Shown one piece after another: positions 1 to 57,647 of a DNA stretch of 64,000 bases; position 1 is the stretch's first letter; every line of letters begins with the position of its first letter. A model generated the notes under the pieces. It worked only from the letters and a program-made list of their open reading frames with translations. It was not told where the DNA came from and made no database searches. Source of the stretch: an uncultured Bacilli bacterium (GTDB lineage: Bacteria; Bacillota_I; Bacilli_A; RF39; UBA660); the NCBI GenBank assembly GCA_934162195.1, contig CAKPHO010000002.1:13689-77688 (forward strand), read 5' to 3'. The position numbers and the translations under genes were made by a program.

Positions 1-290
1 ATGGTGGTACTGTAGCAGCGCCGATTGCTCGTCAAGTACTATTAGATTCAATTGATGCTTTAAATATAAACAAAAGAGAAGGTGCTTCTGATAAAAAATA
101 TAATTATAATGATAAAAAGTATATAGAAGTTCCTAATGTGGAAGGTAAGAGTGTAGAAGATGCTATGAAAGAATTAAAAAGTTTTAAAGTAGAATTTAGT
201 GGTAGTGGAAATAATGTTTCTATTCAAACACCAAGTGCTGGAGAAAGAATTTTAGAAGGAGAAACAATAAAATTATTGTTAACTGAATAG
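1..290 (+). CDS. penicillin-binding protein, C-terminal fragment with PASTA-like domain (5-prime end outside window)
   Basis: Frame 3 reads GGTVAAPIARQVLLDSIDAL...KYIEVPNVEGKSVEDAMKELKSFKVEFSGSGNNVSIQTPSAGERILEGETIKLLLTE, with TAG at 288-290. The pattern is PASTA-like, and the fragment sits directly upstream of mraY as in dcw clusters. Confidence 0.6.
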   Translation, partial: GGTVAAPIARQVLLDSIDALNINKREGASDKKYNYNDKKYIEVPNVEGKSVEDAMKELKSFKVEFSGSGNNVSIQTPSAGERILEGETIKLLLTE

Positions 291-300
291 GGGTGATAGA

Positions 301-1293
301 GTGTTAATAATGACTAAATCGGTATTAAGTTTAATGTGTAGTTTCTTATTTTCGATTGTAATAGGAATTATTTTAGTACCACTTTTAAAAAAATTAAAAG
401 CAGGTCAAAGTCTTAGTATTTATTTGAGTGAAAGACACAAAAGCAAGAACGGAACACCAACAATGGGAGGATTAATCTTTATTATTCCAACTATTATAAT
501 TACTATTATTTTAATTGCTATAAAAAAAATTACCATTACTCATAATTTTTTAATTATCATATTTACATTTATTGGTTATGCTTTAATAGGATTTATTGAT
601 GATTATTTAATTATAGTTAGACATAATAATAAAGGTTTAAGTGAGAGTACTAAACTTTTGATGCAAGTAATTATATCAGTGGTATTTTTCTATTTGTTTA
701 TGAGAAGCGGTAATGAACCACTTCTATGGATACACACCTTAAATATAAAGATAAATATTGGTTGGTATTACGGTTTATTCATCTTACTAGTTTTAGTATC
801 AAGTAGTAATGCGGTTAATTTAACAGATGGCTTAGATGGGCTAGCCGGTGGTCTTTCAATAATAGCATTTTTAGCATTTGGAATTATTACTTGGAATACA
901 GGATGGTTGGAAGGTTATGAAGATATTGCTATCTTTATCTTCATCTTAATTGGATCATTATTAGGTTTTCTATTGTTTAATTTAAATCCTGCTAAAATTT
1001 TTATGGGGGATACTGGTTCTCTTGCTTTAGGAGCAACTTTAGGTAGTTTAGCCATTATTACTCGTCATGAACTATTACTCATTATTATAGGTATTGTGTT
1101 TGTTTTAGAAACATTAAGTTGTGTTATTCAAAGAGTGTATTATAAATTTACTAAAAAAAGAATATTTCTGATGACTCCTATTCATCACACTTTTGAAAAA
1201 CTAGGTTGGAAAGAAATAGATATTGTTAGATTGTTTTGGGTTATAGGATTAATAGGCGCTATGGTATCTATAGCTTTTGGAGTACTACTATGA
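301..1293 (+). CDS. mraY: phospho-N-acetylmuramoyl-pentapeptide transferase
   Basis: 330-aa polytopic membrane protein with MraY hallmarks (GTPTMGG, IDDY, NAVNLTDGLDGLA, MGDTGSLALG, HHHFE-like PIHHTFE). The start may be ATG 310 rather than GTG 301. Confidence 0.95.
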   Translation: MLIMTKSVLSLMCSFLFSIVIGIILVPLLKKLKAGQSLSIYLSERHKSKNGTPTMGGLIFIIPTIIITIILIAIKKITITHNFLIIIFTFIGYALIGFIDDYLIIVRHNNKGLSESTKLLMQVIISVVFFYLFMRSGNEPLLWIHTLNIKINIGWYYGLFILLVLVSSSNAVNLTDGLDGLAGGLSIIAFLAFGIITWNTGWLEGYEDIAIFIFILIGSLLGFLLFNLNPAKIFMGDTGSLALGATLGSLAIITRHELLLIIIGIVFVLETLSCVIQRVYYKFTKKRIFLMTPIHHTFEKLGWKEIDIVRLFWVIGLIGAMVSIAFGVLL

Positions 1294-2381
1294 AAAAGAA
1301 CAAACCAGAATTATTACTTTTAATAAGTGTTATTGTTATATCTTTATTTGGACTTATTATGATATATTCAGCGTCTTATATTTGGGCAGAATATAAATTT
1401 AATGATGCTTTCAAATTTGTAAAAAACCAAGGCATATTTTTTATTGTAGGTGTAATACTTATGATTATCATTAGTAAAATAGATTATCGTAAGTATTATG
1501 AAAAAGCAAATCTTCTATTATTAGGATGTGTAATTCTTTTAATACTGGTTTTAATCCCTGGTGTTGGTAGCGTTAGAAATGGTAGTAGAAGTTGGTTTGG
1601 AATAGGTTCTTTTGGCATTCAACCTAGTGAATTTACTAAATTAGCGCTTATTATTTTTACTTCTAAATATTTAGTTAATAATGAAAAGAACATGAAGTAC
1701 TTTAAAAAAGGAGTTCTTCCTATTTTGGGTATTACTCTAGGTATATTTGCGATTATAATGTTACAACCAGATTTTGGAACTGGAACAATTATTGTTATGT
1801 CTATCATCGGATTACTTTTTGTTGGTGGTGTTGATTTTAAATTTTTTCTAAAGATTGGTCTAGTTGGTTTAGCGGGTGTAGTAGCTTTAATTGCAGTTGC
1901 TCCTTATCGCTTAAGCCGTATTTTATCATTTTTAAATCCTTGGACTGATCCCTTGGGAAGTGGATTTCAAATTATTCAATCGTTATATGCAATTGGCCCT
2001 GGGGGATTATTTGGTTACGGTTTTTTAAATTCTCGTCAAAAACATTTTTATCTTCCGGAACCACAAACGGATTTTATTTTTTCTATCATCAGTGAAGAAT
2101 TTGGCTTTTTAGCAGTCCTACTAGTAACTTCTTTATTTTTAACAATCATTTTAACGGGGTTTAAAATTGCTCGTAATTCTAAAGATTTGTTTGGCAAATA
2201 TTTAGCTTTTGGAATAATGTTTCAAATATCATTTCAAACTCTACTTAATTTGATGGTTGTCGTAGGTTTAATTCCAGTAACTGGTGTAACACTTCCTTTT
2301 CTTTCATATGGAGGATCTAGTTTACTTATTACTTTGTGTGAAATAGGAATAGTATTAAATATATCAAGATATGAGAAATAA
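1290..2381 (+). CDS. ftsW: FtsW/RodA/SpoVE family peptidoglycan glycosyltransferase
   Basis: SEDS motifs are present (QPSEFTKL, LQPDFGT, LPEPQTDFIFS, PVTGVTLPFLSYGGSS). ATG 1290 overlaps the mraY stop (ATGA). I moved the ORF-track start at 1236 to this ATG (MKKNKPELL). Confidence 0.9.
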   Translation: MKKNKPELLLLISVIVISLFGLIMIYSASYIWAEYKFNDAFKFVKNQGIFFIVGVILMIIISKIDYRKYYEKANLLLLGCVILLILVLIPGVGSVRNGSRSWFGIGSFGIQPSEFTKLALIIFTSKYLVNNEKNMKYFKKGVLPILGITLGIFAIIMLQPDFGTGTIIVMSIIGLLFVGGVDFKFFLKIGLVGLAGVVALIAVAPYRLSRILSFLNPWTDPLGSGFQIIQSLYAIGPGGLFGYGFLNSRQKHFYLPEPQTDFIFSIISEEFGFLAVLLVTSLFLTIILTGFKIARNSKDLFGKYLAFGIMFQISFQTLLNLMVVVGLIPVTGVTLPFLSYGGSSLLITLCEIGIVLNISRYEK

Positions 2382-2418
2382 TTTGGATAACTATAACTTT
2401 TAATAGGTAAAGATATTA

Positions 2419-2447
2419 TTGTCAAATGTAATAAAATGTGTTAATAT
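2419..2447 (+). promoter_or_regulatory. candidate sigma-A promoter (TTGTCA-17-TAATAT) in the ftsW/response-regulator spacer
   Basis: TTGTCA at 2419, a 17-nt spacer, then TAATAT. No annotated gene lies between it and the terminator at 2529-2563. Confidence 0.35.
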
Positions 2448-2454
2448 GTATGTA

Positions 2455-2563
2455 GCAAGAAGTCTTGCATAAAATAAAAAAGAGGAACATTCAATTTTGC
2501 AAGTGAATGTCGCCTCACAAATGTGTGTGACACCCTACATATGCAGGGTGTCTATTTTTTTTT
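2455..2563 (+). ncRNA. candidate ~110-nt small RNA (or carrier of a 22-codon ORF)
   Basis: Three hairpins follow the promoter: GCAAG-AAGT-CTTGC, ACATTCA-(10 nt)-TGAATGT, and the terminator hairpin GACACCCT-(8 nt)-AGGGTGTC plus T9. A TTG-initiated ORF (MQVNVASQMCVTPYICRVSIFF) after AAGAGGA is an alternative reading. Confidence 0.3.
2529..2563 (+). terminator. intrinsic terminator
   Basis: The 8-bp stem GACACCCT/AGGGTGTC is GC-rich for this genome. It has an 8-nt loop and is followed by a run of 9 T. Confidence 0.75.
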
Positions 2564-2765
2564 AATGCTAGTACCAGTAAGGTAGATAGTAGTAAAATTA
2601 TAGAAATGTATCTAAGAACTTTTAAAACTAACTTTTTTAAAGAAGCAATATCTTTAATTTTAATATGGAGATATTTATTTGACATAAAAAGTGACAAATG
2701 GCAAAAAAATAACAAATTATCTTTATTATCAAAGAAAATATGTTATAATTAATATAGGTGATAAT

Positions 2766-3536
2766 ATGAAAGATGTTAGTTTTTTAGTTGAAAATGGAAT
2801 CGATGTTAAAGGAAGTTTAGAATTGTTTGGAGATATGGACATGTATAATGAAACAGCGTCTGATTTCTTGAATTCAGTTTCTAAGAAATTAGCAGATATA
2901 AAAAAATATAAGGAAGCATCTGATATGCCAAATTACGCTATACTTGTTCATTCTTTAAAAAGTGATTCCAGATATTTAGGGTTTACTAAGTTAGCTGAAC
3001 TTGCTTATAATCACGAAATGAAAAGTAAAGCTAATGATATTACATATGTTTATAATAATTATGATGAACTTATGAGAGAAGCACATCGTATTGTTAACGT
3101 TGTTAAAGAGTATATGGGGATGGAAGTAGAGGAACAAGAAGAAAAACCAATAATAGTAAAAGATAAAACGATCCTTGTTGTAGATGATTCTAATATTATT
3201 AGAAACTTTATTAAAAAGATATTTAACGATACATATGAAGTTATAGTAGCAAATGATGGAAAAGAAGCACTAGATATGATAGCGTTAAATCAAAACAGTA
3301 ATATTGTTGGAATGTTGCTTGATTTAAATATGCCAAACATAAATGGTTTTGAAGTATTAGAATATTTTGATAAGCATAATTTATTTTCTAAAATTCCAGT
3401 TTCAATTGTAACAGGTGATGATTATCGTGAAACTGTAGATAGGGTATTTGCATATCCTGTTGTAGATATTCTAATTAAACCTTTTAATGAAAGAGATATA
3501 AAAAGAATTGTAGAAAAAACAATTAATCGTGGGTAA
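2766..3536 (+). CDS. Hpt-domain plus receiver-domain protein (phosphorelay component, no output domain)
   Basis: The N-terminal half has an HPt-like helix bundle with HSLKSDSRYLGF. The C-terminal half is CheY-like REC (ILVVDDS, LLDLNMPNINGF, KP). ATG 2766 follows an extended -10 TGTTATAAT. Confidence 0.8.
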   Translation: MKDVSFLVENGIDVKGSLELFGDMDMYNETASDFLNSVSKKLADIKKYKEASDMPNYAILVHSLKSDSRYLGFTKLAELAYNHEMKSKANDITYVYNNYDELMREAHRIVNVVKEYMGMEVEEQEEKPIIVKDKTILVVDDSNIIRNFIKKIFNDTYEVIVANDGKEALDMIALNQNSNIVGMLLDLNMPNINGFEVLEYFDKHNLFSKIPVSIVTGDDYRETVDRVFAYPVVDILIKPFNERDIKRIVEKTINRG

Positions 3537-3540
3537 AATA

Positions 3541-3570
3541 TTAAAAGTAGTTGCAAAAACTACTTTTTTA
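3541..3570 (+). terminator. intrinsic terminator
   Basis: AAAAGTAGTT-GCAA-AAACTACTTTTTT hairpin with a T-tail, directly after the stop codon. Confidence 0.7.
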
Positions 3571-3659
3571 TGATAAAATTTATCTTGTCGTGATCCGCTG
3601 GGATTAAAAAATATTATATATTACTTATGATCATAGATTTAAAAAAGGAGAGTGAAATC

Positions 3660-4001
3660 GTGAATTTAGTTGAAAAAATAACTAAGAGTCAAATTAGAAC
3701 TGATATTCCTGAATTTCAAGTTGGAGATACTGTTCGTGTTGATGTAAAAATCGTCGAAGGTAAACGAGAAAGAATCCAAGCTTTTGAAGGTATTGTTATT
3801 GCTATTCAAGGACGTGGAATTGGAAGAAACTTTATTGTAAGAAAGATTTCAGGTGGAGTAGGAGTTGAAAGAACATTCCCTATTAATTCACCAAAAGTTG
3901 CTGCTATTACAGTAGTAAGAAAAGGTGTAGTACGTCGTGCTAAAATTGGTTCTTACTTAAGAAAATCAGTTAAACAACCAAAGATTAAAGAAAGAAATTA
4001 A
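3660..4001 (+). CDS. rplS: 50S ribosomal protein L19
   Basis: The sequence [30 protein letters not shown]...[14 protein letters not shown] is classic L19. GTG 3660 is preceded by AAGGAGAG, and I regard the ORF-track start at 3627 as too long. Confidence 0.9.
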
Positions 4002-4042
4002 TAAGACGTATGAGTCTTATTTTTTCGTATGAGAGGTGAATT

Positions 4043-4537
4043 ATGAAATTTATAAAAGAACTAGTTCCTTATATAGTAATAATAGTCGTAGTAGTACTTA
4101 TTAGAACTTTTATTGTTACTCCAGTTCAAGTGGATGGAGAATCCATGTATCCAACATTACTTGATAATCAAATATTAATTTTAAAGAAATATGACCATAG
4201 TTATGATAGATTTGATATAGTAGTTTTTAAATATAATAATTCTAAATTAGTAAAAAGAATTATTGGGTTACCTGGAGAAACAGTAAGTTATAAAAACAAT
4301 ACTTTATATATCAATGATAAAGAAATAGATAACATAAAATTAGATGCTTACACATATGATTTTAATTTAAGCGAACTTGGTTTTGATAAGATACCAGAAG
4401 GATATTATTTTGTTTTAGGTGACAATAGAACAAATTCTTTAGATAGTAGAATGATAGGACTTATACCAGAAGATAGTATCCTGGGGGCAACTAATTTTAG
4501 TATTTTTCCTTTCAAAAGATTTGGCAGTATTAAATAA
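4043..4537 (+). CDS. lepB: signal peptidase I
   Basis: S26 motifs GESMYPTL, VKRIIGLPGE and GDNRTNSLDSR, with an N-terminal TM anchor. Confidence 0.9.
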   Translation: MKFIKELVPYIVIIVVVVLIRTFIVTPVQVDGESMYPTLLDNQILILKKYDHSYDRFDIVVFKYNNSKLVKRIIGLPGETVSYKNNTLYINDKEIDNIKLDAYTYDFNLSELGFDKIPEGYYFVLGDNRTNSLDSRMIGLIPEDSILGATNFSIFPFKRFGSIK

Positions 4538-4586
4538 TAGAATTTATTTCTATTATTTTTTTTGGTATAATTGATATGGTGATGGT

Positions 4587-5567
4587 ATGAACAAAAAGAC
4601 AGTAGCGTTAATAATATCTTTGCTAATTATACTTTTTCTAAGTATTTTCTTTATAAATACCAAAAAAGAATATAAAGCAAATATGTATTATATGGATACA
4701 TATATATATATAAAACTATATAGTAAAAAAGATGCTAGTGAGATACTAAAAAAAATAGATGATATATATAAAGAGTATCACTCTTTAACAGATAGATATA
4801 ATCATTATGAGGGAATTGTTAATATCTATGATATTTATCATAATACTTTAAGTGATAATGAATTAATAATAGATCCTAAACTATATGATATGTTAAAGTA
4901 TGCTAAAGAGTGGGAAGAAAAGTATCCCAAATTTAGTATTGAAATAGGTAGTACTATTGATGTATGGAAAAAATATAGAGATAGTGGTAAAGGTATTCCG
5001 TCAAAAGAAGAACTTGATAATACTAAAGAATATACAAAATTAATTTTGCTTGAAGATAATAAAATATTAAATAATCATCCTAATTTAGATCTAGGAGCTA
5101 TATCTAAAGGATATACTACAGAAGTAGTTGGTAAATATTTAGAGAGTATTGGCATTGACGAATATTTAATAAATGCTGGTGGTAATGTCAAAGTAGGAAG
5201 TAACTATAAAAAGAAAAATTATAGTATTGGTATCCAAAGTCCGATTAAAGGTGAAGATCTAATGTCAGTAATAAAAGGAAATAATATTAGTGTTGTAACC
5301 AGTGGCGGATATGAAAGAAATTATGAATATAATGGGATTACTTATCATCATATTATAGATCCAGATACTTTATATCCAAGTAATAATATGAAAAGTGTTA
5401 CAGTAGTTACAAAAGATAGTGCATTAGGTGATATACTTTCAACAACATTATTTTTAAGTAGTGTAGAAGAAGTTCAAGAAATAATTAAAAATTATGATTG
5501 TGAAGCCATATGGTATACTAATGACAATAAAATAATTAGAAGTGAGAATTTCAATAAGTATGAATAA
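4587..5567 (+). CDS. apbE: FAD:protein FMN transferase (ApbE family)
   Basis: ApbE motifs ISKGY, INAGGN, TSGGYER and HHIIDP, with an N-terminal membrane anchor. Confidence 0.85.
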   Translation: MNKKTVALIISLLIILFLSIFFINTKKEYKANMYYMDTYIYIKLYSKKDASEILKKIDDIYKEYHSLTDRYNHYEGIVNIYDIYHNTLSDNELIIDPKLYDMLKYAKEWEEKYPKFSIEIGSTIDVWKKYRDSGKGIPSKEELDNTKEYTKLILLEDNKILNNHPNLDLGAISKGYTTEVVGKYLESIGIDEYLINAGGNVKVGSNYKKKNYSIGIQSPIKGEDLMSVIKGNNISVVTSGGYERNYEYNGITYHHIIDPDTLYPSNNMKSVTVVTKDSALGDILSTTLFLSSVEEVQEIIKNYDCEAIWYTNDNKIIRSENFNKYE

Positions 5568-5928
5568 AAGTGATTGGAAATTAGTTATAAGTTTAGCACT
5601 TGTAATAATCGTTAGCTTTGCATTATTATTTTTAGTTAAAAATAATAATACCCCTAAAAAAGCACTAGTATATTATGAAAATGAATTAGTATTAGAAATA
5701 GATTTAAGTTTAAAAGGAGAACATGAATATCATGTTTCTGGATATAACGGAGATATATTAATTAAAACAAATGATAATAAAATTAAAGTTGAAGAGGAAA
5801 ATAGTCCTAATCATATATGTTCTAAACAAGGATATATAGATAGTAGTTATGAAGTACTTGTTTGTCTTCCTAATAAAGTAGTTATCAAAATAGAAGATAA
5901 TAAAGAAATAGATACGGTTGTGAAATGA
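5560..5928 (+). CDS. NusG domain II-containing membrane-anchored protein
   Basis: N-terminal TM followed by a beta-rich domain ending ICSKQGYI...VCLPNKVVI, typical of the NusG_II/DUF1312 family. ATG 5560 overlaps the apbE stop. Confidence 0.65.
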   Translation: MNKSDWKLVISLALVIIVSFALLFLVKNNNTPKKALVYYENELVLEIDLSLKGEHEYHVSGYNGDILIKTNDNKIKVEEENSPNHICSKQGYIDSSYEVLVCLPNKVVIKIEDNKEIDTVVK

Positions 5929-6425
5929 TGAAAAAATTTACAAGATTAACAATGTTACTAGCACTTAGTGTAGTATTAAATATTATAGAAAGTTTTATAC
6001 CACTCTTTAATGGTAATATTCCAGGATTAAAGTTAGGTCTTGCTAATATTATTATTTTAATAGTTTTATATATGTTTTCTTTTAAAGATGCTTTATATGT
6101 ATCACTACTTAGAATAATATTAGTAGGTATTTTAAGAACAGGTTTATTTAGTATGACCTTCTTCTTTTCATTAGGGGGAGCTTTCCTTAGCTTGTGTTCT
6201 ATGTTTATAGCTAAGAAGACTAAACTCTCTATTATAGGTGTAAGTATTGTAGGCTCTATCTTTCACAGTATAGGACAAATTTTAGTTGCAATTCTAATTA
6301 TAAAAAATAGGTACATAATTTATTATGTACCTTGGTTACTTTTATTTTCTATTCCTACAGGTATATTAGTAGGATTTACAAGCAAGACTATTTTAAATAA
6401 CTTGGAGAATAGAAAAATAATATAA
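5925..6425 (+). CDS. Gx transporter family protein (heptaprenyl diphosphate synthase component I-like)
   Basis: 166-aa five-TM protein beginning LALSVVLNIIESFIPL. The context is the usual ApbE / NusG_II / Gx trio, and the start overlaps the upstream stop (ATGATG). Confidence 0.65.
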   Translation: MMKKFTRLTMLLALSVVLNIIESFIPLFNGNIPGLKLGLANIIILIVLYMFSFKDALYVSLLRIILVGILRTGLFSMTFFFSLGGAFLSLCSMFIAKKTKLSIIGVSIVGSIFHSIGQILVAILIIKNRYIIYYVPWLLLFSIPTGILVGFTSKTILNNLENRKII

Positions 6426-6485
6426 AGATACTTGCAAACTGGATGACAATGATGTATACTTAGTACAGTAAAGGACAGTGGTAGT

Positions 6486-6545
6486 ATGGTTAAAGTAGCT
6501 TTGAAAATAATAGCAAAAGCACCAACCTGGGGGGGGGTTATTTAA
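6486..6545 (+). CDS. candidate 19-codon leader peptide MVKVALKIIAKAPTWGGVI
   Basis: AAAGGA lies 10 nt upstream of the ATG. The paralogous copy at 31989-32048 has the same length and frame and the same MVK...PTWGGVI ends, although the middle differs at the nucleotide level. Confidence 0.45.
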   Translation: MVKVALKIIAKAPTWGGVI

Positions 6546-6575
6546 TCATACTATAGTATTAAATGATAAAGAAAA

Positions 6576-6624
6576 CACAAAGTTTCTAGACTTTTTAGTA
6601 GTCTAGATTTCTTTGTGCTTTTTT
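6576..6624 (+). terminator. intrinsic terminator between the uORF and the pilin gene
   Basis: CACAAAG-TTT-CTAGACT / AGTCTAG-ATT?TTT-CTTTGTG long hairpin with a 3x3 internal loop, followed by CTTTTTTG. It is conserved in copy 2. Confidence 0.65.
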
Positions 6625-6674
6625 GTTGTACCTTTACAAAAAAAGTAAATCTAAATAAAAGAAGGAGGAAGATT

Positions 6675-7574
6675 ATGAAATTAAAAAATAAATACGGATT
6701 TACACTTATTGAATTACTAGCGGTAATAGTAGTATTAGCAATAATCGCACTAATCGCAACACCAATAGTAATGAATACAATTAAGAATGCGAAGAAAGGA
6801 GCGGCTGAAAGAAGTGCGGATAGCTATGTTAAACAAGTAGAAGTAGCAGTAGCAGAAGAACGACTAAATAAAAATGAAGTACCAGAAGGCGAATATCAAA
6901 TAACAAGTGATGGAAATCTATGTAGAGATAAAAGTGCAAGTTGTTCAGATGAAGAAAAAATAAAAATTGAAATGAGCGGAACAAAACCAACATCAGGGAA
7001 AATAAAGATAACAAATGGAAGTGTTGATCAAACATCATCAAGTATGACAATAGGAGATTATACTGTTTCATATAATTCTACTAAAAAAACATATGAAGCA
7101 ACAGAGAAAGGGAATACAACTCCTGATACACAATCAACAACAGTAGTGTATAGATGGGCACCAGATACTATAGAAATAGGTGATACAATAAATCCAAGTG
7201 ATTATACAAAAGATGCAAGTACATTAGGAAAAAGTAATTATTTAAAACATGTATTAGATAAAGATGATAAAGTAATAGAATCATATGCATGTGTTATATT
7301 TAATAGTAAAGAATATTGTTTAAGAGGAGGGAACTCATCTTTCTATGGATATGCAGAAAATGAAGCAGATTATACAGGAAATGCGTTAATATTAAAACAA
7401 ATAAAAGATGCAAAAATAGAGGGAATAAGCTGCTACTTCAATGCTAGCAACTGTAACTGCCATGATGGCTCCGTTAGTTTGAATGTGAATTCGTATGGTG
7501 ACGTTAGTGCGGGCGATGTTGATGGCGGCTGCTCCGTCGGTGGTGATGGTAGTTCGTATTGCGTAAGCGCGTAG
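6675..7574 (+). CDS. modular type IV pilin-like protein A (class III signal peptide plus C-terminal Cys/Gly-rich domain)
   Basis: MKLKNKYG/FTLIELLAVIVVLAIIALIATP has the prepilin cleavage motif with Glu at +5. RBS GAAGGAGGA precedes ATG 6675, so the ORF-track start at 6615 is rejected. The first ~145 aa are paralogous to the pilin at 32257. Confidence 0.85.
   Translation: MKLKNKYGFTLIELLAVIVVLAIIALIATPIVMNTIKNAKKGAAERSADSYVKQVEVAVAEERLNKNEVPEGEYQITSDGNLCRDKSASCSDEEKIKIEMSGTKPTSGKIKITNGSVDQTSSSMTIGDYTVSYNSTKKTYEATEKGNTTPDTQSTTVVYRWAPDTIEIGDTINPSDYTKDASTLGKSNYLKHVLDKDDKVIESYACVIFNSKEYCLRGGNSSFYGYAENEADYTGNALILKQIKDAKIEGISCYFNASNCNCHDGSVSLNVNSYGDVSAGDVDGGCSVGGDGSSYCVSA
7428..7574 (+). other. 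adenine-avoiding, codon-phased segment at the pilin A C-terminus (candidate DGR variable region)
   Basis: Of 48 codons, 47 end in C, T or G (a single GTA). GC is ~50% by hand count against ~30% upstream. Locally rare codons are used (GCG, TCG, GTG), and the boundary at ~7428 is sharp. Confidence 0.45.
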
Positions 7575-7606
7575 TTGTGCGCCTCTGTTCATATGATTAT
7601 AGTTAT

Positions 7607-7638
7607 AGATTATAGATAGATTCTATAATCTTTTTTTT
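7607..7638 (+). terminator. intrinsic terminator
   Basis: AGATTATAG-(7 nt)-CTATAATCT followed by T8. Confidence 0.7.
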
Positions 7639-7716
7639 AAGTAAAAAATATAATTTAAAATACTTGAAAAAAAATAACTAATATTATATACTTAATGTAT
7701 AGAAAGTAGGGATAAG

Positions 7717-8283
7717 ATGAAAAAAAGTTTAGGTATTGTGATTGGAGTAGTGGCTGCTGTTTTAATTATAATTGGTTTATTTGGTTCAAGCTACAATAAG
7801 ATGGTTAAAGAAAACGAAAATGTTGAAAGTAAATATTCAGATATTTCTGTTCAATTAAAAAGAAGAACTGATTTAATTCCAAATTTAGTTAATACTGTTA
7901 AAGGTTATATGGAACATGAACAAAATGTTATTGATAGTATTACTACAGCTCGTTCTAATTTAATGAGTGCAAAGACAGTTGAAGAACAAGCTAAAGCTAA
8001 CTCTGAATTAACCAGTGCATTAAATGCTCTTGCTGTTGTTGTAGAAAATTATCCAGATTTAAAAGCTAATACAAATTTTATACAATTACAAGATGAATTA
8101 GCTGGTACTGAAAATAGAATAGCTGTATCACGCAAAGATTATAATGATGCTGTTAAGAGTTATAATCAAATGATTAAAAGCTTTCCAAAAAATTTAGTTG
8201 TTGGTATGTTTGGTTTTGAAAAGAAAGCATATTTTGAAATTTCAGAATCAGAAAAAGAGGTACCAAATGTTTCATTTGAATAG
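7717..8283 (+). CDS. lemA: LemA family protein
   Basis: N-terminal TM plus LemA signature regions (RRTDLIPNLV, YMEHEQ, ENYPDLKAN, ELAGTENRIAVSRKDYN). Confidence 0.9.
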   Translation: MKKSLGIVIGVVAAVLIIIGLFGSSYNKMVKENENVESKYSDISVQLKRRTDLIPNLVNTVKGYMEHEQNVIDSITTARSNLMSAKTVEEQAKANSELTSALNALAVVVENYPDLKANTNFIQLQDELAGTENRIAVSRKDYNDAVKSYNQMIKSFPKNLVVGMFGFEKKAYFEISESEKEVPNVSFE

Positions 8284-9196
8284 GATTAAAAAGTATTTAA
8301 TCCTTCTTCTTTTATTTATTAGTATAGGTTGTTTTAGTAATGTAAAAGCTTTGGTAAATCCTACAAATGAATTTTATGTAAATGACTATGCTAATATATT
8401 ATCTGAAGAAACTGAAAAATATATTATTGATAAAAGTTCAAAACTAGCTAATGTTGATGGAACGCAAATTGTTGTTGTGACAGTTCCAAATTTAGAAGGT
8501 CAAAGTTTGGAATCTTATGCAACTGCGTTATTTCGTAAATTTGGAATAGGCAATAAAGAAAAGAATAATGGATTACTGTTATTACTTGCTTTAGAAGAAA
8601 GGCAGTTTAGAGTAGAGGTAGGATATGGTCTTGAAGGTATACTTCCAGATGGAAAAACAGGAAGGTTTCAAGATCAATATATAATTCCATATTTAAGAGA
8701 GAATAATTGGGATGAAGGAATTAAAAATGGTTATGATGCTTTCTATTCTGAAATAGTTAAACAAAATAATTTGGATTTAAGTTATACTGAAGCTACTGCT
8801 ATTGCGGATAGTCAAGGAGATTCGGAAAATTTAATGTTACTATTATTCTTAGGAGCGGTAATTGGATGCGTAAATGGTGCCATTTTAAAGAATGTGGTAA
8901 AAAATAAAGGTATTGGAATAAAGGTTTTAGCATTTATTTTGTACTACGTATTTGTATTTATTGTTGCAGGATGGGCACTTAGTAATAATTTACAAAATTT
9001 ATTTCTTTGTTTATGCCCAATGAATCCTATCGCATTCTTGTTTGGTTATTTAAATTTGCAAACTCGAATAGGTTCTGGATCTGGTGGATATGGAGGATGG
9101 TCATCAGGTGGTAGTAGTTGGGGTTCTTCCGGAGGCGGAGGATTCTCTGGCGGAGGAGGTTCTTCTGGTGGTGGAGGAAGCTCAAGAGGTTTTTAG
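8267..9196 (+). CDS. TPM domain-containing protein (YgcG-like) with Gly/Ser-rich tail
   Basis: Signal peptide, a TPM phosphatase-like domain (VNDYANILSEE...QIVVVTV...NGLLLLLALEERQFRVEVGYGLEG), TM segments and a GGSSGGG tail. It forms the usual LemA-TPM pair. ATG 8267 was chosen instead of 8198. Confidence 0.8.
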   Translation: MFHLNRIKKYLILLLLFISIGCFSNVKALVNPTNEFYVNDYANILSEETEKYIIDKSSKLANVDGTQIVVVTVPNLEGQSLESYATALFRKFGIGNKEKNNGLLLLLALEERQFRVEVGYGLEGILPDGKTGRFQDQYIIPYLRENNWDEGIKNGYDAFYSEIVKQNNLDLSYTEATAIADSQGDSENLMLLLFLGAVIGCVNGAILKNVVKNKGIGIKVLAFILYYVFVFIVAGWALSNNLQNLFLCLCPMNPIAFLFGYLNLQTRIGSGSGGYGGWSSGGSSWGSSGGGGFSGGGGSSGGGGSSRGF

Positions 9197-10188: not shown

Positions 10189-11068
10189 AGAAGTAAAAAC
10201 AAGATTAGACCAATATTTAAGTGAAAAAACTGAGTATAGCCGTAGTCAAATACAAAAAATGATTAAAGATGGTCTTGTTTTAGTAAATGATAAAAAAATT
10301 AAGAGTAGCTATATCCTAAAAATAGGTGATGTTTTAGAAATTGGTGAGCCAGAAGTGGATGTGTTAAGTGCAGAACCAGAAAAAATGGATTTAGATATAG
10401 TCTATGAAGATGATGATATTATTGTTGTTAATAAAGCAAATGGTGTAGTAGTACATCCTGCTGTTGGAAATAATCATGGAACACTTGTTAATGGTCTTGC
10501 TTATCATTCTAAAAATCTTAGTGATTTAAATGGTGAATTTAGACCGGGAATAGTACATAGAATTGATGCATATACAACAGGCTTATTAGTAGTTGCTAAA
10601 AATAACAAAGCACACGAGTCATTAGCGCGTCAATTAGAAGAAAAGTCAACACATCGTAAATATATCGCTTTAGTTTGGGGTGTTATTAATAATGAAACTG
10701 GTACTATTGATGCTCCTATCGGTAGAGATGAAAAAGACCGCAAAAAGATGGCTGTAACATCAACTAATAGCAAGCATGCTATTACACATTTTAAAGTATT
10801 AGAAAGATATAAAGATGCTACTTTAATTGAAGTAGAACTTGAAACTGGAAGAACACATCAAATTAGAGTTCATATGAATTATATAGGACATCCAGTAGTT
10901 AATGATCCAGTTTATGGAAATAAAAAATTAATAGATGAAACAGGACAATGTTTACATGCTAAAGAGTTAGGATTTGTTCATCCAACTACTGGAAAATATG
11001 TAGAATTTTCTAGCGAATTACCTAAATGTTTTGTTAATATTTTAAACAAATTTAAAGGGAGTGATTAA
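10166..11068 (+). CDS. rluD: 23S rRNA pseudouridine synthase, RluA/RluD family
   Basis: S4 domain (RLDQYLS) plus HRIDAYTTGLLVVAK and TGRTHQIRVH motifs. The lspA-rluD order is conserved. The start (GTG 10166) is uncertain by a few codons. Confidence 0.9.
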   Translation: MNKIEINEEVKTRLDQYLSEKTEYSRSQIQKMIKDGLVLVNDKKIKSSYILKIGDVLEIGEPEVDVLSAEPEKMDLDIVYEDDDIIVVNKANGVVVHPAVGNNHGTLVNGLAYHSKNLSDLNGEFRPGIVHRIDAYTTGLLVVAKNNKAHESLARQLEEKSTHRKYIALVWGVINNETGTIDAPIGRDEKDRKKMAVTSTNSKHAITHFKVLERYKDATLIEVELETGRTHQIRVHMNYIGHPVVNDPVYGNKKLIDETGQCLHAKELGFVHPTTGKYVEFSSELPKCFVNILNKFKGSD

Positions 11069-12217
11069 ATGGAAAGTATAATCAATAAAAATGATGAATT
11101 GGTTATGAAATTATTACATTATTTCATAACAGAAAAAGGTTATAATCCAATTGTTTTACATGGTGCTCAAAATGAAATATGGCTTGAAAACTTGGATCAA
11201 GACTATAAGATTGTAAGAATTGTAAGTAATTATATTCATAATGATGAACAATTAGATTTTGATATATTTAAAACAAAAAATATTATGAAAAAGATTAAAA
11301 GAAAAACCTTTTCTTTTAATATGAATGCTTTAAGTATTTTTCTAAATTTAGGTGATAATGTTCATTTTAATAATGATAAATTTGGTTCTAATTTGATTGC
11401 CATTGATTTAAAGAATTTTAATGATTTAGAAAATAACCAAGCAATAATAAAATCATTTCCAGATATTTGTAAAAAAGAAGAAACAAATGAAGATGGTTTT
11501 AATTTGTTTATGAAATTGACAAAGGATATTAATGATAAAAACGAGGTCGAAGCTAAGAAAGCAGAAGATATATTTACAAAGAAAAGACCGATTATTACTT
11601 ATGCTTTAATAATTATTAATGTCTTGGTTTTTATAGCAATGTATATTTTTGGTAAAGGTAGTGAAGATAATTTAACATTAGTATTATTTGGTGCTAATTA
11701 TCCAGCTTTAGTAAGAGCGGGAGATTATTATCGCCTTATTACAAGTGCTTTTCTTCATTCAGGTTTACTACATTTAATATTTAATAACTATGCATTATAT
11801 GTAATAGGTTCACAATTAGAAAGTTTTTTAGGTAGAGTTAAATTTTTGATCATATATTTAGTAAGTGCTATATGTGGAAGTTTAATGTCAATGTTATTTA
11901 GCAATGGAATAAGTGTAGGAGCTAGTGGTGCAATATTTGGTCTTTTAGGTTCACTTTTATATTTTGGATACAATTATCGTGTATATTTAGGTACTGTTTT
12001 AAAATCTCAAATAATACCTCTAATTATTCTTAACTTAATAATTGGTTTTGTAACACCAGGAATTGATAATGCTGCTCATATCGGAGGACTTTTAGGAGGA
12101 CTTGGTATGACTATGGCATTAGGTATCAAATATAAAACAAGTACATTTGAGAAAGTAAATGGTAAAATAATAATGGCTATATATGTAGGATTTTTAATTT
12201 TTATGGCATTTTTTTGA
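11069..12217 (+). CDS. rhomboid family intramembrane serine protease (YqgP/GluP-like)
   Basis: Cytoplasmic N-domain followed by a rhomboid core with HSGLLHLIFN, GASGAIFGL and AHIGG motifs. Confidence 0.85.
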   Translation: MESIINKNDELVMKLLHYFITEKGYNPIVLHGAQNEIWLENLDQDYKIVRIVSNYIHNDEQLDFDIFKTKNIMKKIKRKTFSFNMNALSIFLNLGDNVHFNNDKFGSNLIAIDLKNFNDLENNQAIIKSFPDICKKEETNEDGFNLFMKLTKDINDKNEVEAKKAEDIFTKKRPIITYALIIINVLVFIAMYIFGKGSEDNLTLVLFGANYPALVRAGDYYRLITSAFLHSGLLHLIFNNYALYVIGSQLESFLGRVKFLIIYLVSAICGSLMSMLFSNGISVGASGAIFGLLGSLLYFGYNYRVYLGTVLKSQIIPLIILNLIIGFVTPGIDNAAHIGGLLGGLGMTMALGIKYKTSTFEKVNGKIIMAIYVGFLIFMAFF

Positions 12218-12305
12218 TAAGAAAGGGTACAAGGATTTGTACTTTTTTTGTTTATAAAAAAGGAAATAGAAAAGTTATCTTGTATATTATAAGTAGGAGG
12301 TAACT

Positions 12306-13196
12306 ATGAACTATTATGATGAAATAAAAACTAAATTAATAGATAATGAAATATATTCTAGAGTAAAAGATTATTCAAAAGAGAGAAATACTGTTATTAC
12401 ATATTTTGAAATAGGTAAATTATTAAATGAAGCAGGCGGTAAATATGGGGATAATATTATAGATGAATATTCTAAAAAATTGGTTTTAGAAGTAGGTAAA
12501 AAATATAATAGAAGTACATTATTTAAGATGAAAAAATTATATAATGTATTTAGAAATGAAAAAGTGGCACCACTGGTGCCACAATTAACTTGGAGTCAGT
12601 GTTTATTGTTAATACCAATAAATAACATAAATGAAATCCGTTATTATGCAACGCAAGCTAAAGAAAGAAATTTATCAAAAAGACAGCTAGAAGAAATAGT
12701 TAAAAATAAAGAATATGAAAGATTGCCTATAGAAACTAAGAATAAACTAATGAATGAAGAAAAACTGGAAGTAAAAGATTTAGTGCCTAATCCAATATTA
12801 ATAAGAAATAAAAATAATATAGAGATAATTACAGAAAAAGTATTACATAATCTAATACTTGAAGATATAACATTATTTATGAGAGAGCTTGGTAATTCAT
12901 TTAGTTTTATAGATAGTGAATATAAAATAAAAATAGGAGATAGATATAATTATATAGATTTATTACTTTATAATATAAAGTACAATGCCTATATTGTGGT
13001 AGAACTAAAAGTAACTGAATTTAAAGTAGAATATATATCACAAGTACAAAAATACATGAATTATATAGATAAAAATGTTAAAGAAATAAGTAATAATAAT
13101 ACAATAGGTATCTTAATTTGTAAAAAGGAAAATAAATTTGTTATCGAATATTGTTCAGATGATAGAATTACAGTTAGAGAATATGAATTAGTGTAA
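12306..13196 (+). CDS. PDDEXK nuclease family protein (YhcG/DUF1016-like), intact copy
   Basis: 296 aa with the DUF1016-like N-terminal region (ITYFEIGKLLNEAGGKYGD, LTWSQ) and the core YIDLLLYN...VVELK. A paralog lies at 45462. Confidence 0.7.
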   Translation: MNYYDEIKTKLIDNEIYSRVKDYSKERNTVITYFEIGKLLNEAGGKYGDNIIDEYSKKLVLEVGKKYNRSTLFKMKKLYNVFRNEKVAPLVPQLTWSQCLLLIPINNINEIRYYATQAKERNLSKRQLEEIVKNKEYERLPIETKNKLMNEEKLEVKDLVPNPILIRNKNNIEIITEKVLHNLILEDITLFMRELGNSFSFIDSEYKIKIGDRYNYIDLLLYNIKYNAYIVVELKVTEFKVEYISQVQKYMNYIDKNVKEISNNNTIGILICKKENKFVIEYCSDDRITVREYELV

Positions 13197-13307
13197 AGAA
13201 TAATTAAAAATTTTAAAATATAAAAAATATTTTGTCAACTAGGTTAAAATCAGAGACAATCCTTTGCGATTGTTTTTTGTTGTGGTAAAATAAATGTGGT
13301 GATGGAA

Positions 13308-32256: not shown

Positions 32257-33417
32257 ATGAAAAAGAAAGGATTTACTTTAATAGAATTACTAGCGGTAAT
32301 AGTAGTATTAGCAATAATAGCACTAATTGCAACACCAATAGTAATGAATACGATAAAAAGTGCAAAGAAAGGAGCTGCAGAAAGATCTGCGGATAGTTAT
32401 ATTGGAGCCGTAGAAACAGCAGTTGCAACAGCAAAATTAGATGGTAAAGATATACCAGATGGAACATACCAAATAGATAGTGATGGTAATTTAACAGGAG
32501 AAGGGTTACCAGATGGTAAATTAACAATAGATATGAAAGGAAATAAGCCAACAGGAGGAACAATAACAATAAAGAATGGACAAGTAACAAATGATTCAGA
32601 GATGACTATTGGAGATTATGATGTTAAATATAATGAAGATAACAATAAATATGAAGCAACCAAGTTAAAAACATATATAAATGGAGAGGTAGTATATTTT
32701 AATGTAACAACAGGAGAAAAATGTACATCATCAGATTATACAGAAACACAAAGTAATACAGGAACAAATAGGGGCTGTATGAAATTTTATGCCTTTAATG
32801 ATGATGGAGGAAATACAGTAAACTTAATATTGGATCACAATACAACAGCAACTGTAGCATGGAATTCAAGTAATAGTAATACAAATGGGCCAAAAGAAGT
32901 ATTAGAACAATTAAAAAAGGATACTGAATCATGGGAAGGGACAATAACACCGGCAAATTATACAATGGATCAAACAGGACAACCAAGTAATGCAAAATAT
33001 ACAATAGATTATAGTAGTTATAAAGCAAGATTAATAACAGCTAACGAAATAGCAAAAATTACAGGAAATACTTCTTGGAACGAGAAAACTGCAAGTAACA
33101 TATTCTATTTTGATACCAATACATCAACGATAAGTTCAACATGTGCTAAAGGAAATACAAGTGGATGTTCATATAGATGGTTATATGATAGATCAAGCAC
33201 CTATTGTACAACATATGGATGTTTAAATAATGCTGATTCTGCAATGACTGGAATTGGATATTGGACAGCATCTTCTCATGTCGGCTACGTTGGCACCATC
33301 TCTAACCGTGCTTGGTACGTGAACTGCCGCGCTCACGCGAACTACGGCGGCGTTTTCGATTCGAGCAGCCTTGGCGTTCGCCCAGTTATAGAAGTATTAA
33401 AATCTAAACTTTCATAA
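32257..33417 (+). CDS. modular type IV pilin-like protein B (pilin module plus DUF1566/C-type-lectin-like C-terminal domain)
   Basis: MKKKG/FTLIELLAV prepilin motif. The C-terminal domain carries ARLITANEIAKITG, GYWTASS and GVRPVIEV, as in Lcl/DUF1566-like folds. Confidence 0.85.
   Translation: MKKKGFTLIELLAVIVVLAIIALIATPIVMNTIKSAKKGAAERSADSYIGAVETAVATAKLDGKDIPDGTYQIDSDGNLTGEGLPDGKLTIDMKGNKPTGGTITIKNGQVTNDSEMTIGDYDVKYNEDNNKYEATKLKTYINGEVVYFNVTTGEKCTSSDYTETQSNTGTNRGCMKFYAFNDDGGNTVNLILDHNTTATVAWNSSNSNTNGPKEVLEQLKKDTESWEGTITPANYTMDQTGQPSNAKYTIDYSSYKARLITANEIAKITGNTSWNEKTASNIFYFDTNTSTISSTCAKGNTSGCSYRWLYDRSSTYCTTYGCLNNADSAMTGIGYWTASSHVGYVGTISNRAWYVNCRAHANYGGVFDSSSLGVRPVIEVLKSKLS
33280..33384 (+). 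other. adenine-avoiding, codon-phased segment near the pilin B C-terminus (candidate DGR variable region)
   Basis: Of 35 codons, 34 do not end in A. GC is ~61% by hand count. All three Arg codons are CGY although AGA dominates elsewhere in the window. AAC, TAC, CAC, AGC and GGC codons are enriched. Confidence 0.5.
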
Positions 33418-39266: not shown

Positions 39267-39316
39267 TCTTCTTGTATTTTTTTTTATTTAAAGATATAAT
39301 AAATATAGGTGATAGA

Positions 39317-40270
39317 ATGAAACGAGGATTTACTTTAATAGAATTGATGGCTGTTATTGTTGTTCTAGGTATATTAGCAACAATATCAATAATATCTGTA
39401 GATAAGATAATTAAAGAAAATAAAGAAGAAACATATAAGGCACAAATTGCAACAATAGAAGATGCTGCCCGTACCTGGGGAGTAAAGCATATAAAAGAAC
39501 TTCCTGATAGTAATGGTGCTATATCTGTACCACTTCTTTATTTTAAAAATGAAGGAATAATACCACAAGATTTTAAAAATCCCAAAACAAATAAACCATT
39601 TAATGATGATTTATATGTAAATATTAGTTATGAAGGCGGTATATATAAATATGAAGTTGATGAAGCAAGTGGTCTTGGAACAAATGCTAATCCAACATTA
39701 TTAAAAAGAAGATATAGTTTATGTAAATTAGTAAATGGAACAAAGGAAACGGTAGGAGCAAAATATACATGTCATTTAGATAGTGATAGAACATTCTATG
39801 TATTAGAAACAAGTAAAGATAATGTATCACTAATTATGGATAGAAACTTCACAGATGCTATTGTACCTTCCAAATTAGCGTGGTGTATAGATGGTGGAAG
39901 TGATGGTTCAACATGTAAGAGTATAAATTCGAAAGAATATGGAACACCATTAAAACATATTCAAGATATATTTGGAACGGAGGTAGAAGTAAGTATTCCA
40001 AGTCCTAATCAAATAGCTGCTGCATCTGGAAAGACATTTTCTAGTGGAGACTTAATTTCTGGCTTATCATCTTGGTTATATGATTATTTAGATGGTACAA
40101 CTCACCCAGTATCTGGAGTATTAGGCTATTGGATATCAACAACTATAGATTCTAATTCTTCAAGTGCTTATATTACCATATACACTGGAAATATGTATGG
40201 AAGCAATGTTAACTCTAGCGATGGAGGCCTTCGCCCAGTTATTACAGTTGCAAAATCACAATTACAATAA
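39317..40270 (+). CDS. modular type IV pilin-like protein C (pilin module plus DUF1566/lectin-like C-terminal domain)
   Basis: MKRG/FTLIELMAV prepilin motif. The C-terminus has PSPNQIAAASG, GYWISTT and GGLRPVITV. Codon usage is AT-rich throughout, and the uORF leader is absent. Confidence 0.85.
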   Translation: MKRGFTLIELMAVIVVLGILATISIISVDKIIKENKEETYKAQIATIEDAARTWGVKHIKELPDSNGAISVPLLYFKNEGIIPQDFKNPKTNKPFNDDLYVNISYEGGIYKYEVDEASGLGTNANPTLLKRRYSLCKLVNGTKETVGAKYTCHLDSDRTFYVLETSKDNVSLIMDRNFTDAIVPSKLAWCIDGGSDGSTCKSINSKEYGTPLKHIQDIFGTEVEVSIPSPNQIAAASGKTFSSGDLISGLSSWLYDYLDGTTHPVSGVLGYWISTTIDSNSSSAYITIYTGNMYGSNVNSSDGGLRPVITVAKSQLQ

Positions 40271-54089: not shown

Positions 54090-54854
54090 ATGGAGTTATA
54101 TTATTCTTTATGTTTCTTTGTATTAGGAACCATTCTTGGTTCTTTCTACAATGTAGTAGGTTATAGATTGCCAAAAGGGGAATCAATTGTTTCCCCTCCA
54201 TCTCATTGTCCAAATTGCAATCATAGACTTAAATTTTGGGAATTACTCCCAATTGTGTCGTTTATATTACAAAGAGGTAAATGTACAAGTTGTAAACAAA
54301 AAATATCATGGTTTTATCCAATTTTTGAATTTAGTTGTGGCCTAGTATTTGCTTTAGCTTTTTTATCATTTGGGTTAAGTTGGAATTTGTTAATAGCTTT
54401 AACGTTTGTATCAATGTTAATTATAGTAATGGTAAGCGATTATATTTATATGATAATCCCAGATGAAATTTTACTATTTTTTGGAATAGCTCTATCTATT
54501 GAAATGTTATTTATAGATGGATATCATAGTCTTTTATTAAGTCTAGGAAACGGCTGTATTGCGGCTTTATTCATTTATTTATTAAAAATGTTAGGAGATT
54601 TGATTTTTAAAAAAGAATCCATGGGTGGAGGAGATATAAAGCTATTATTCATTTTTGGTCTAGTATTAGGCTGGCAACTTTCTGTTTTTTCTATTTTTTT
54701 AGCATCAATTATAGGGTTGCCATTATCATTATTAATTTTGTATAAAAACAAAGATCATGTTATTCCTTTTGGACCATTTTTAAGTATAGGGGCGTTAATA
54801 ATTTTGATTACTAGAATAGATTTAAATTGGTTATTGAATATATTGATTAAATAA
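54090..54854 (+). CDS. pilD: prepilin peptidase (A24 family)
   Basis: CPNC...CTSC zinc-binding motifs, the catalytic Asp contexts (VSDYIYMIIPDE, GGGDIKLL) and 7-8 TM segments. Confidence 0.9.
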   Translation: MELYYSLCFFVLGTILGSFYNVVGYRLPKGESIVSPPSHCPNCNHRLKFWELLPIVSFILQRGKCTSCKQKISWFYPIFEFSCGLVFALAFLSFGLSWNLLIALTFVSMLIIVMVSDYIYMIIPDEILLFFGIALSIEMLFIDGYHSLLLSLGNGCIAALFIYLLKMLGDLIFKKESMGGGDIKLLFIFGLVLGWQLSVFSIFLASIIGLPLSLLILYKNKDHVIPFGPFLSIGALIILITRIDLNWLLNILIK

Positions 54855-57053: not shown

Positions 57054-57647
57054 ATGAAAAAAAATCAAGGTTTTTCAATTATAGAATTAATAGTATCTTT
57101 TACTTTAACGATGATTATTGTTGTTATTCTGTTTGAAATTATTATTTCTCTTAAAAATGTATATGAAAATTCTGTTACTAAATCTGCATTAATTAGTAAA
57201 CAAAATATTTTAACCGATTATATATATTCGGATTTTTATGACTATGGTTTAACAAATATAGATGTTTGTGGGAATAATTGTATTCAATTTACATATAAAA
57301 ATGGAGATGTTAAAAACTTATCATGGGAATACGAATATGATGATACTTCACAAAGACAATCATTTCAAAAAATTAAATATGGAGATTATACAGTTGATTT
57401 AATTGCTAATTCAAAGTTTGATTTAAGTTTAAGTGCAAGTCATAATACTTATGAATTTAAAGGCGCAAAAGTTTGTAACTCTTCAAAAACTTATTCTTCA
57501 AGGCTTATATATTTCTTAGATATTAAATTACCAGTTTATAATAATAAATTTGAAAATCAAGATTTTGGTTTAAATATTTTGTATGTTTTCCCTTATGATG
57601 GTACTGATGCTATAGTTTCTAGTTTACCTTATTCGCAAGGTTGTTAA
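57054..57647 (+). CDS. minor pilin-like protein (prepilin-type N-terminal cleavage/methylation domain)
   Basis: MKKNQG/FSIIELIVSFTL with Glu at +5. Confidence 0.7.
   Translation: MKKNQGFSIIELIVSFTLTMIIVVILFEIIISLKNVYENSVTKSALISKQNILTDYIYSDFYDYGLTNIDVCGNNCIQFTYKNGDVKNLSWEYEYDDTSQRQSFQKIKYGDYTVDLIANSKFDLSLSASHNTYEFKGAKVCNSSKTYSSRLIYFLDIKLPVYNNKFENQDFGLNILYVFPYDGTDAIVSSLPYSQGC

Follow-up and report, generated by a model that had tools for sequence, protein, structure and literature searches.

Diversity-generating retroelements (DGRs) are the sole known systems of targeted protein hypermutation in prokaryotes, and those of their targets that are structurally understood almost all have the C-type lectin fold. 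In the DGR of phage BPP-1 (Mtd/TR/Avd/bRT), the target is a phage tail-fibre protein. Its C-terminal variable region (VR), of C-type lectin fold, receives adenine-specific substitutions from an AAY-rich template repeat (TR; Y is C or T) and ends in a GC-rich element that it shares with the TR. Chromosomal DGRs of the Treponema denticola and Legionella type ('Architecture D'; PMC5758913) serve several scattered paralogous surface targets, lipoproteins with C-type lectin VRs, from one cassette that holds a MutS-like (MSL) gene with avd. In gut Bacteroides, DGRs diversify the C-terminal binding module of a pilus subunit, the adhesin of Type V pili, again through C-type lectin VRs (bioRxiv 10.1101/2024.11.15.621889). 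Here we analyze a stretch of 64,000 nucleotides (hereafter the window) from an uncultured Bacilli bacterium, in which a type IV pilin-like gene, pilin A, occupies positions 6675-7574 of the plus strand and encodes 299 aa. A preliminary description of this DNA had proposed that the 3' part of the gene is the target of a DGR whose reverse transcriptase (RT) and template lie outside the window. We find it highly probable that positions 7429-7583 are the VR of a DGR target, with an end resembling the initiation of mutagenic homing (IMH) element, at the C-terminus of this type IV pilin-like protein.

The locus shares with BPP-1 the C-terminal VR ending in a GC-rich element common to VR and TR, the adenine-specific substitutions and the AAY-rich template, and a related cassette found on another contig carries an Avd-family protein and an RT closest to PDB 8ub7. 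It differs from BPP-1 in that the target is a chromosomal type IV pilin, that the VR is predicted to be an all-beta, cysteine-stapled meander, that the related cassette adds a MutS-like gene, and that the window target lies at least ~17-66 kb from any cassette. With the Treponema and Legionella type it has in common the MutS-like gene and a target among surface proteins, but the target is a prepilin-type protein with another predicted VR fold, and service of the window pilin in trans is an inference. The Bacteroides systems likewise diversify a pilus subunit of a gut bacterium, whereas the present target is type IV pilin-like, comes from uncultured Bacilli and is predicted to be non-lectin. 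The mechanism is the known one of DGRs; novelty lies in the kind of protein targeted, in a VR scaffold predicted to be non-lectin and in the remote location of the target.

Extra C-terminal modules on type IV pilins have a precedent in Gram-positive bacteria: PilB and PilC of Streptococcus sanguinis, for example, are reportedly modular pilins with an additional functional domain grafted at the C-terminus. That module is a fixed adhesin or lectin domain, unlike the hypervariable, retroelement-written module proposed here. A GspG/ComGC-type pilin with a DGR VR, of the same broad target class, is listed as a rare domain in the literature; in the part of that source available to us the entry comes without structure, family, distribution or remote-target analysis. 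The largest metagenomic DGR survey states that remote targets are undetectable by its approach, and its main text does not mention pilins (PMC8144416). In the literature searched, whose coverage was incomplete, we found no description of a DGR-diversified type IV pilin family or of this VR fold.

Pilin A begins as a prepilin. Its N-terminus reads MKLKNKYG followed by FTLIELLAVIVVLAIIALIATP, that is, a leader ending in Gly, then F-T-L-I-E and a hydrophobic helix (6675-6761, plus strand; leader junction MKLKNKYG-FTLIE; N_methyl match at residues 4-28). Matches to Pfam N_methyl (E 1.4e-7) and to NCBIfam IV_pilin_GFxxxE / TIGR02532 exceeded their cut-offs, and the N_methyl columns were unchanged in an alignment of 45 homologs. 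The named pilin equivalog models (ComGC, GspG, PilA) remained far under their cut-offs, with the N-terminal motif alone scoring.

The composition of the gene changes sharply near its end. Codons 1-251 have 30.1% GC and 46.3% A, with third positions A147/T77/G19/C8, and the 20 codons just before the VR are ordinary NNA/NNT codons. Codons 252-300 (7428-7574, stop included) have 51.0% GC and 18.4% A, and the third positions of the 48 sense codons from 7428 are C19/T22/G6/A1, so that 47 of 48 avoid A. Our recount thus reproduces exactly the A-avoiding, codon-phased C-terminal segment reported in the preliminary description, as well as the abrupt switch from NNA/NNT codons at ~30% GC. The VR itself (7429-7571, plus strand), the final 48 codons of the open reading frame (ORF), is A-poor and mostly NNY, and contains no K, E, Q, M or W residue. 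It ranks second in GC among all 150-nt windows of the 64 kb (~27% GC overall), behind the C-terminus of a second pilin gene at ~33.2-33.4 kb. We delimited it by composition, by ungapped alignment to a template repeat in a related contig, and by entropy and residue spectra across homologs.

That related contig, L083, carries a DGR cassette beside a homologous pilin. The genes follow one another as a 65%-identical pilin homolog (P0088, 10001-10885, with N_methyl), a 138-aa MutS domain I protein (11036-11452; Pfam MutS_I), an adenine-rich template repeat (TR83, 11483-11639), bAvd (11809-12186; PF22296, 49.4 bits against a cut-off of 40) and a 362-aa RT (12170-13258; PF00078); contig L084 has the identical order. 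Over 157 nt, TR83 differs from the 3' end of the L083 pilin (10743-10899) at 21 template adenines and one other base, and these adenine-specific mismatches identify the repeat as a genuine template. The RT shows the IGNQTSQ and YMDD motifs typical of DGR RTs. Its closest solved structure is a 328-aa reverse transcriptase (PDB 8ub7-8ube, E 6e-24), while group II intron RTs reached E 1e-8 at best. We take PDB 8ub7 to be the RT of the Bordetella phage BPP-1 DGR. With 42 adenines across 47 codons, TR83 can specify ~10^24 peptides, and its A-free codons (TGC, TTC, TCC, GTT, TTG, GCG, TCG, GGT, GTC) are conserved among homologs.

Positions 7429-7583 of the window align to TR83 without gaps, and mismatches fall at 21 of 45 template adenines and at 10 of 105 other positions (Fisher p ~1e-6). 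The segment that had been proposed as a DGR variable region thereby aligns to a genuine template, that of a relative, lying beside bAvd and an RT, with its mismatches concentrated at adenines. Variation across the family follows the same template. In alignments of homologs, the first ~250 residues are conserved and the last 48 read SCxFxAxxSxCxxGSVxLxAxSxGxVxAxxxxGxCxVxxDGSSxCxS, where x is hypervariable. Among 120 homologs, mean residue entropy was 2.86 bits at A-containing codons of TR83 and 0.92 at A-free ones (Mann-Whitney p 3e-8), and adenine-only changes reach 90.8% of the residues seen at A-containing codons. Positions with AAY in the template hold N/S/D/G/Y/T/R/H/I/F and similar residues, those with GAT hold D/G/V/A, and of the 1918 residues at AAY positions 55 are K/E/Q/M/W, a set that accounts for 20.5% of residues in the scaffold.

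Could the segment be the by-product of a Gly/Ser/Cys-rich surface loop under classical diversifying selection, with no targeted mutagenesis? The peptide is indeed rich in G, S, D, C and N, and a Gly-rich tail elsewhere in the window, at ~9.0-9.2 kb, is GC-rich too. Selection on the peptide, however, leaves the synonymous choice unexplained (third-position A in 1 of 48 VR codons against 147 of 251 upstream), the residue sets are limited to those reachable from AAY or GAT codons, and a relative has an adenine-rich, non-coding copy of the segment beside an RT, namely TR83. TR83 contradicts this explanation, which we regard as very improbable.

Divergence by codon position bears on another explanation, which the preliminary description had itself named: a recent horizontal graft from a donor of higher GC with ordinary codon usage and no retroelement. 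The abrupt GC step would fit such a graft, as would the recombinogenic behavior of the pilin locus between strains. In pairwise comparisons of seven pilin genes, though, VR divergence at codon positions 1, 2 and 3 was 0.34, 0.37 and 0.18, compared with 0.18, 0.15 and 0.26 in the scaffold. Homologs thus differ in the VR at first and second positions with the third conserved, the reverse of ordinary divergence, and this contradicts the graft. Furthermore, it is at the adenines of a genuine template repeat that the segment varies, and thousands of homologs in genomes just as AT-rich carry this GC-rich segment too. Of the alternatives, we give this one the least credence, at next to nothing.

The 3' end of the segment is conserved as well. 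The stop codon and the GC-rich end of the TR homology (TAGTTGTGCGCC, 7572-7583, plus strand) are identical or nearly so in all VR loci and in TR83, homology ends immediately after, and 7575-7583 (TTGTGCGCC) matches exactly its counterpart in L001, the closest metagenome-assembled genome (MAG). The GC-rich stretch noted earlier directly after the VR is borne out; by analogy with the phage BPP-1 IMH, TAGTTGTGCGCC would be the IMH-like element. The small GCGC...GCGC hairpin described at 7567-7583 fared less well, being a weak 5-bp stem in a region (7560-7650) whose fold was not significant (z = -1.4 against shuffles). Further downstream, an AT-rich hairpin followed by T8 (7607-7639, plus strand) folds as a terminator of the pilin gene, and is possibly also the structured element 3' of the target. 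A consensus terminator scan made no call there because the stem is AT-rich, and any role of this hairpin in retrohoming is conjectural. In other loci, a motif of ~17-25 nt (CTACATCTTAGAATCTA...) lies directly 3' of the TR homology (L001, L081, L083 and L085, partly L082 and L086). The loci carrying it after the VR differ in genomic context, the template lacks it, and it may be a target-recognition element.

Strains of the same species allowed us to compare the locus over short distances. The MraY protein of the window was found unchanged on 20 contigs, and L172, L174 and L175 share the gene neighbourhood, with flanks ~98-99% identical to the window. Strain divergence stayed at ~1-4% as far as the pilin gene, was 25-35% over 7100-7590 and returned to ~1-4% from 7600 onward; the 3' boundary of high divergence coincides with the end of the VR and its IMH-like element. 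Between the window and L174, the VR shows 26 nonsynonymous codon changes and one synonymous, residues 143-251 show 26 and 12, and residues 1-142 show 7 and 11. Within the VR, 42 of 144 nt differ, 27 of the 42 at TR83 adenines and 5 of the 42 at third positions. The within-species VR pattern is DGR-like, and variation lies at the codon positions expected for a DGR both across the 120 homologs and in the same-species strain L174.

The pilin locus (6400-7600) is also a mosaic hotspot: another allele begins at ~6800 in L172 and L175 and at ~7100 in L174, between flanks at most a few per cent divergent, and the end of L030, from the closest MAG, has a more divergent prepilin gene at the syntenic site. 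CAKOTU01, of the nearest MAG, is 92.5-94% identical to window positions 3-6638. The two contigs encoding the exact pilin A protein were identical across the 17.5 kb compared and gave no within-population signal.

Several results weigh against the reading of pilin A as a target that a DGR of its own genome still serves. Within the window, plain and adenine-tolerant sliding comparisons on both strands returned only chance A-rich matches as template candidates, and a YxDD motif scan of long ORFs gave a single YADD match and no RT. Nor was there an RT, bAvd or repeat in the ~10 kb past each window end, which we reached through window-encoded proteins. When 187 fetched loci were scanned, with tolerance at adenines, for a template compatible with the window VR, only TR83 was partly so, and TR83 has 10-11 non-adenine mismatches to the window VR and is therefore not the cognate template of the window genome. 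A conserved-core pattern scan of a viral collection and a strict, window-specific degenerate template pattern run against metagenome contigs each gave 0 matches. The CTACATCTTAGAATCTA motif (~20 nt) is absent from the window locus, where 7584-7606 were compared. Finally, residues 143-251, which lie outside the template, are likewise diverged between same-species strains. Recombination among pilin alleles therefore also acts at the locus, and the VR difference is not assignable with certainty to in-place retrohoming; it could have been imported instead of made in place.

These observations would suit an orphan or fossil VR, written by an ancestral DGR or imported from a DGR-bearing relative, which now has no matching template and evolves in the ordinary way. 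Around pilin A ~80 kb are covered in all and contain no TR or RT; related contigs have bAvd and RT beside homologous pilins. The family also includes VRs that are apparently decayed: the VR of L085 has a degenerate 3' end and 20 mismatches at non-adenine positions, and P0105 is rich in residues of the K/E/Q/M/W type. Yet the window VR shows no decay in a 27% GC genome, as judged from its third positions and its residue set, and the identity of its 3' end to that of L001 and the 26:1 ratio of nonsynonymous to synonymous changes, at a flank divergence of ~1-2%, also speak for activity. The tail of a second pilin in the window is about as poor in A, suggesting that DGR activity is maintained in the lineage, and remote DGR targets are documented, with seven scattered ones in Treponema (PMC5758913). 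Several of the non-adenine mismatches to TR83 recur in the L001 VR, and this sharing suggests a lineage-specific template allele. We judge an orphan VR unlikely, though it is the most plausible of the alternatives considered. Pilin A is a real DGR target, either remote and active or orphan; the searches described here did not find the cognate TR and RT of its genome, so its VR may or may not still be rewritten. We infer that a cognate cassette exists in the window genome, that rewriting continues and that the varied surface binds ligands. That neither RT nor template lies in the window or in the ~10 kb past each end is consistent with the original proposal, which had placed both outside the window.

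Other searches around the locus and among related RTs gave the following results. The YADD match was rejected as an RT, its sequence context resembling a metallo-beta-lactamase/RNase J-type protein (judged from context only). An Rfam scan of the window found two tRNAs only and nothing at the pilin locus. The upstream extension holds cell-division genes, and the downstream extension, which runs to the contig end, holds YaaC, a restriction-related gene and two unknown ORFs. Collecting 80 metagenome loci by way of their RTs yielded AAY-rich related templates, none closer to the window than TR83; many RT contigs span no more than 1-4 kb and several break off at the repeat or close to it, which limits this search. 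The TRs of the RTs nearest that of L083 (P0123, P0124, P0126) and of a widespread RT, P0217, were rejected because they do not fit the window VR, and a protein search with the translated template, for ORFs called across TRs, gave no candidates. In L170 (158-310), an A-poor, VR-like sequence occupies the expected template site ~180 nt upstream of bAvd and probably reflects chimeric assembly over the VR/TR repeat. P0217 and its TR are identical in ten independent samples (L178-L187), and the VRs beside it in the seven samples that align are nearly identical, with one variable position. The comparison is uninformative about activity, though it suggests either that one clone is widely shared or that the cassette is at present little active.

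We also predicted the structure of the VR-bearing part of pilin A. The model of the full-length protein (predicted local distance difference test score, pLDDT, 85.7) has a long pilin helix (residues 11-66) and two beta-rich modules. For residues 152-299, which comprise the conserved part of the C-terminal globular module (residues 152-251; 7128-7427, plus strand) and the VR, the AlphaFold model reached pLDDT 95.5 and a predicted template modelling score (pTM) of 0.89. The modelled VR consists of six short strands (residues 252-255, 259-263, 267-272, 277-281, 284-288 and 294-298) and carries four nearly invariant cysteines, C253, C262, C286 and C296. It is thus predicted with high confidence to be a cysteine-stapled beta meander. 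In this model, the alternation of conserved and variable residues together with the four cysteines would fit one buried face and one exposed, diversified face. Searches of PDB and BFVD with Foldseek returned no match at E<0.001 and no C-type lectin, including Mtd and TvpA-like folds; a sequence profile of the C-terminal module found no relative in PDB and no family in Pfam. The window VR is modelled as a six-strand beta meander and is predicted to have neither a C-type lectin nor an Ig-like fold, the former being typical of DGR targets but not strictly defining. The module had been called a tip domain, but the protein may be either a major pilin or a modular minor one, and the label is therefore not established.

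The family is broad. A threshold of E<=1e-3 gives 4524 homologs of pilin A, nearly all of them in gut metagenomes; those in genome collections belong to MAGs that bear the labels uncultured Bacilli, 'Tenericutes' or Mycoplasmatota and derive from human, rumen, rabbit and mouse gut. The L083 RT has 2284 homologs at E<=1e-30. Among the loci screened from L083 onward, which include the 80 RT-guided metagenome loci, adenine-specific TR/VR pairs occur in 27 and fall into two VR families: the Cys-rich type of the window, present in ten of them (L083/84, L088-L091, L094, L095, L098-L100) and a lectin-type VR, '...AW.V....G......GVRPV' (L105, L108, L109, L118, L122-L129, L135, L136). Templates of the Cys-rich group align to TR83 as AAY-rich relatives, and several of its targets are N-terminally anchored surface proteins other than prepilins. 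In L088, L089, L095, L099 and L100, the Cys-rich VR sits on proteins that lack FTLIE and have another hydrophobic N-terminus, for example '...AFTQNLNINGTA...', which gives the impression of TasA/camelysin-type signal regions.

The gene set of L083 is found again in L168 and, in a different order, in L178-L187. A MutS domain I protein of ~137-138 aa recurs at varying positions of these cassettes (L083 11036-11452, L168 814-1230, L178 9115-9528), and the database RT P0223 combines PF00078 and MutS_I domains in one protein. A DGR architecture in which small MSL genes stand alongside avd has been described (Wu et al. 2018, PMC5758913), and the recurrent MutS domain I protein fits that accessory class.

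The window also encodes pilus machinery, ~44 kb downstream of pilin A: a T2SSF/PilC-type platform protein (51646-54081, plus strand; Pfam T2SSF E 2e-52), an A24 prepilin peptidase (54090-54854, plus strand; A24_N_bact E 7e-34, Peptidase_A24 E 3.5e-15) and a T2SSE/PilB-type assembly ATPase (54986-56485, minus strand; T2SSE E 4e-127). Further prepilin-type genes lie at 32257-33417, 39272-40270 and 57054-57647. The first of these is the second pilin mentioned above (386 aa), which over its first ~44 codons and ~190 nt upstream matches pilin A at 84-88% identity. No other stretch of the window is as GC-rich and A-poor as its C-terminus (GYWTASSHVGYVGTISNRAWYVNCRAHANYGGVFDSSSLGVRPV, ~33262-33390), which resembles the classical lectin-type DGR VR, a type paired with genuine TRs in loci such as L105, L118 and L122. 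Neither the window nor any fetched locus yielded a template for this tail, and a DNA alignment to the lectin-type TR of L105 gave nothing usable. The gene at 8198-9196 ends in a Gly/Ser-rich tail (~9000-9190, GSGSGGYGGWSSGGSSWGSSGGGGFSGGGGSSGGGGSSRGF) that ranks third in GC among the stretches of the window; it has the look of a low-complexity peptide, not of a VR, and alignment to TR83 gave nothing there.

If pilin A is rewritten as known DGR targets are, the following course can be proposed by analogy. A cassette elsewhere in the genome, of the L083 type (MutS-like gene, template repeat, bAvd and RT), would transcribe its template repeat, and RT-bAvd would copy the RNA into cDNA, misincorporating opposite template adenines. 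The cDNA would then replace the VR, anchored for homing by TAGTTGTGCGCC, the GC-rich 3' end common to template and target. Because the template would consist mostly of AAY and GAT codons set among A-free scaffold codons (TGC, GTT, TTG, GCG, TCG, GGT, GTC), each round would randomise afresh ~25 residues that lie on a single face of the disulfide-stapled, six-strand beta meander, and would keep the residues that determine the fold. Pilin A would presumably be processed and assembled by the type IV pilus machinery downstream, and the likely outcome would be a pilus with a diversifiable binding or antigenic surface.

We advance a wider proposal more tentatively, at a little short of an even chance. 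The disulfide-stapled beta meander, a module not characterised before, may be a further DGR scaffold that differs from the C-type lectin fold, borne on type IV pilins of uncultured gut Bacilli and on fibre-type surface proteins of their relatives, and several scattered pilin loci per genome may be served in trans by one cassette containing a MutS-like gene. The result would be a pilus surface that can be reprogrammed at multiple loci.

The finding would add type IV pilin-like proteins to the target classes of DGRs, with >4500 pilin homologs and >2200 related RTs in public data. It would also add a confidently predicted non-lectin VR scaffold without a solved relative, and targets far from any cassette, a kind that large metagenomic surveys have missed (PMC8144416). 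As a compact module of 48 residues, the VR could serve as a scaffold for engineered, DGR-based evolution of binders. For the organisms themselves, it suggests that uncultured gut Bacilli with small genomes invest in diversifying their pili, which bears on adhesion to host and mucus, escape from phages through their receptors, and evasion of IgA.

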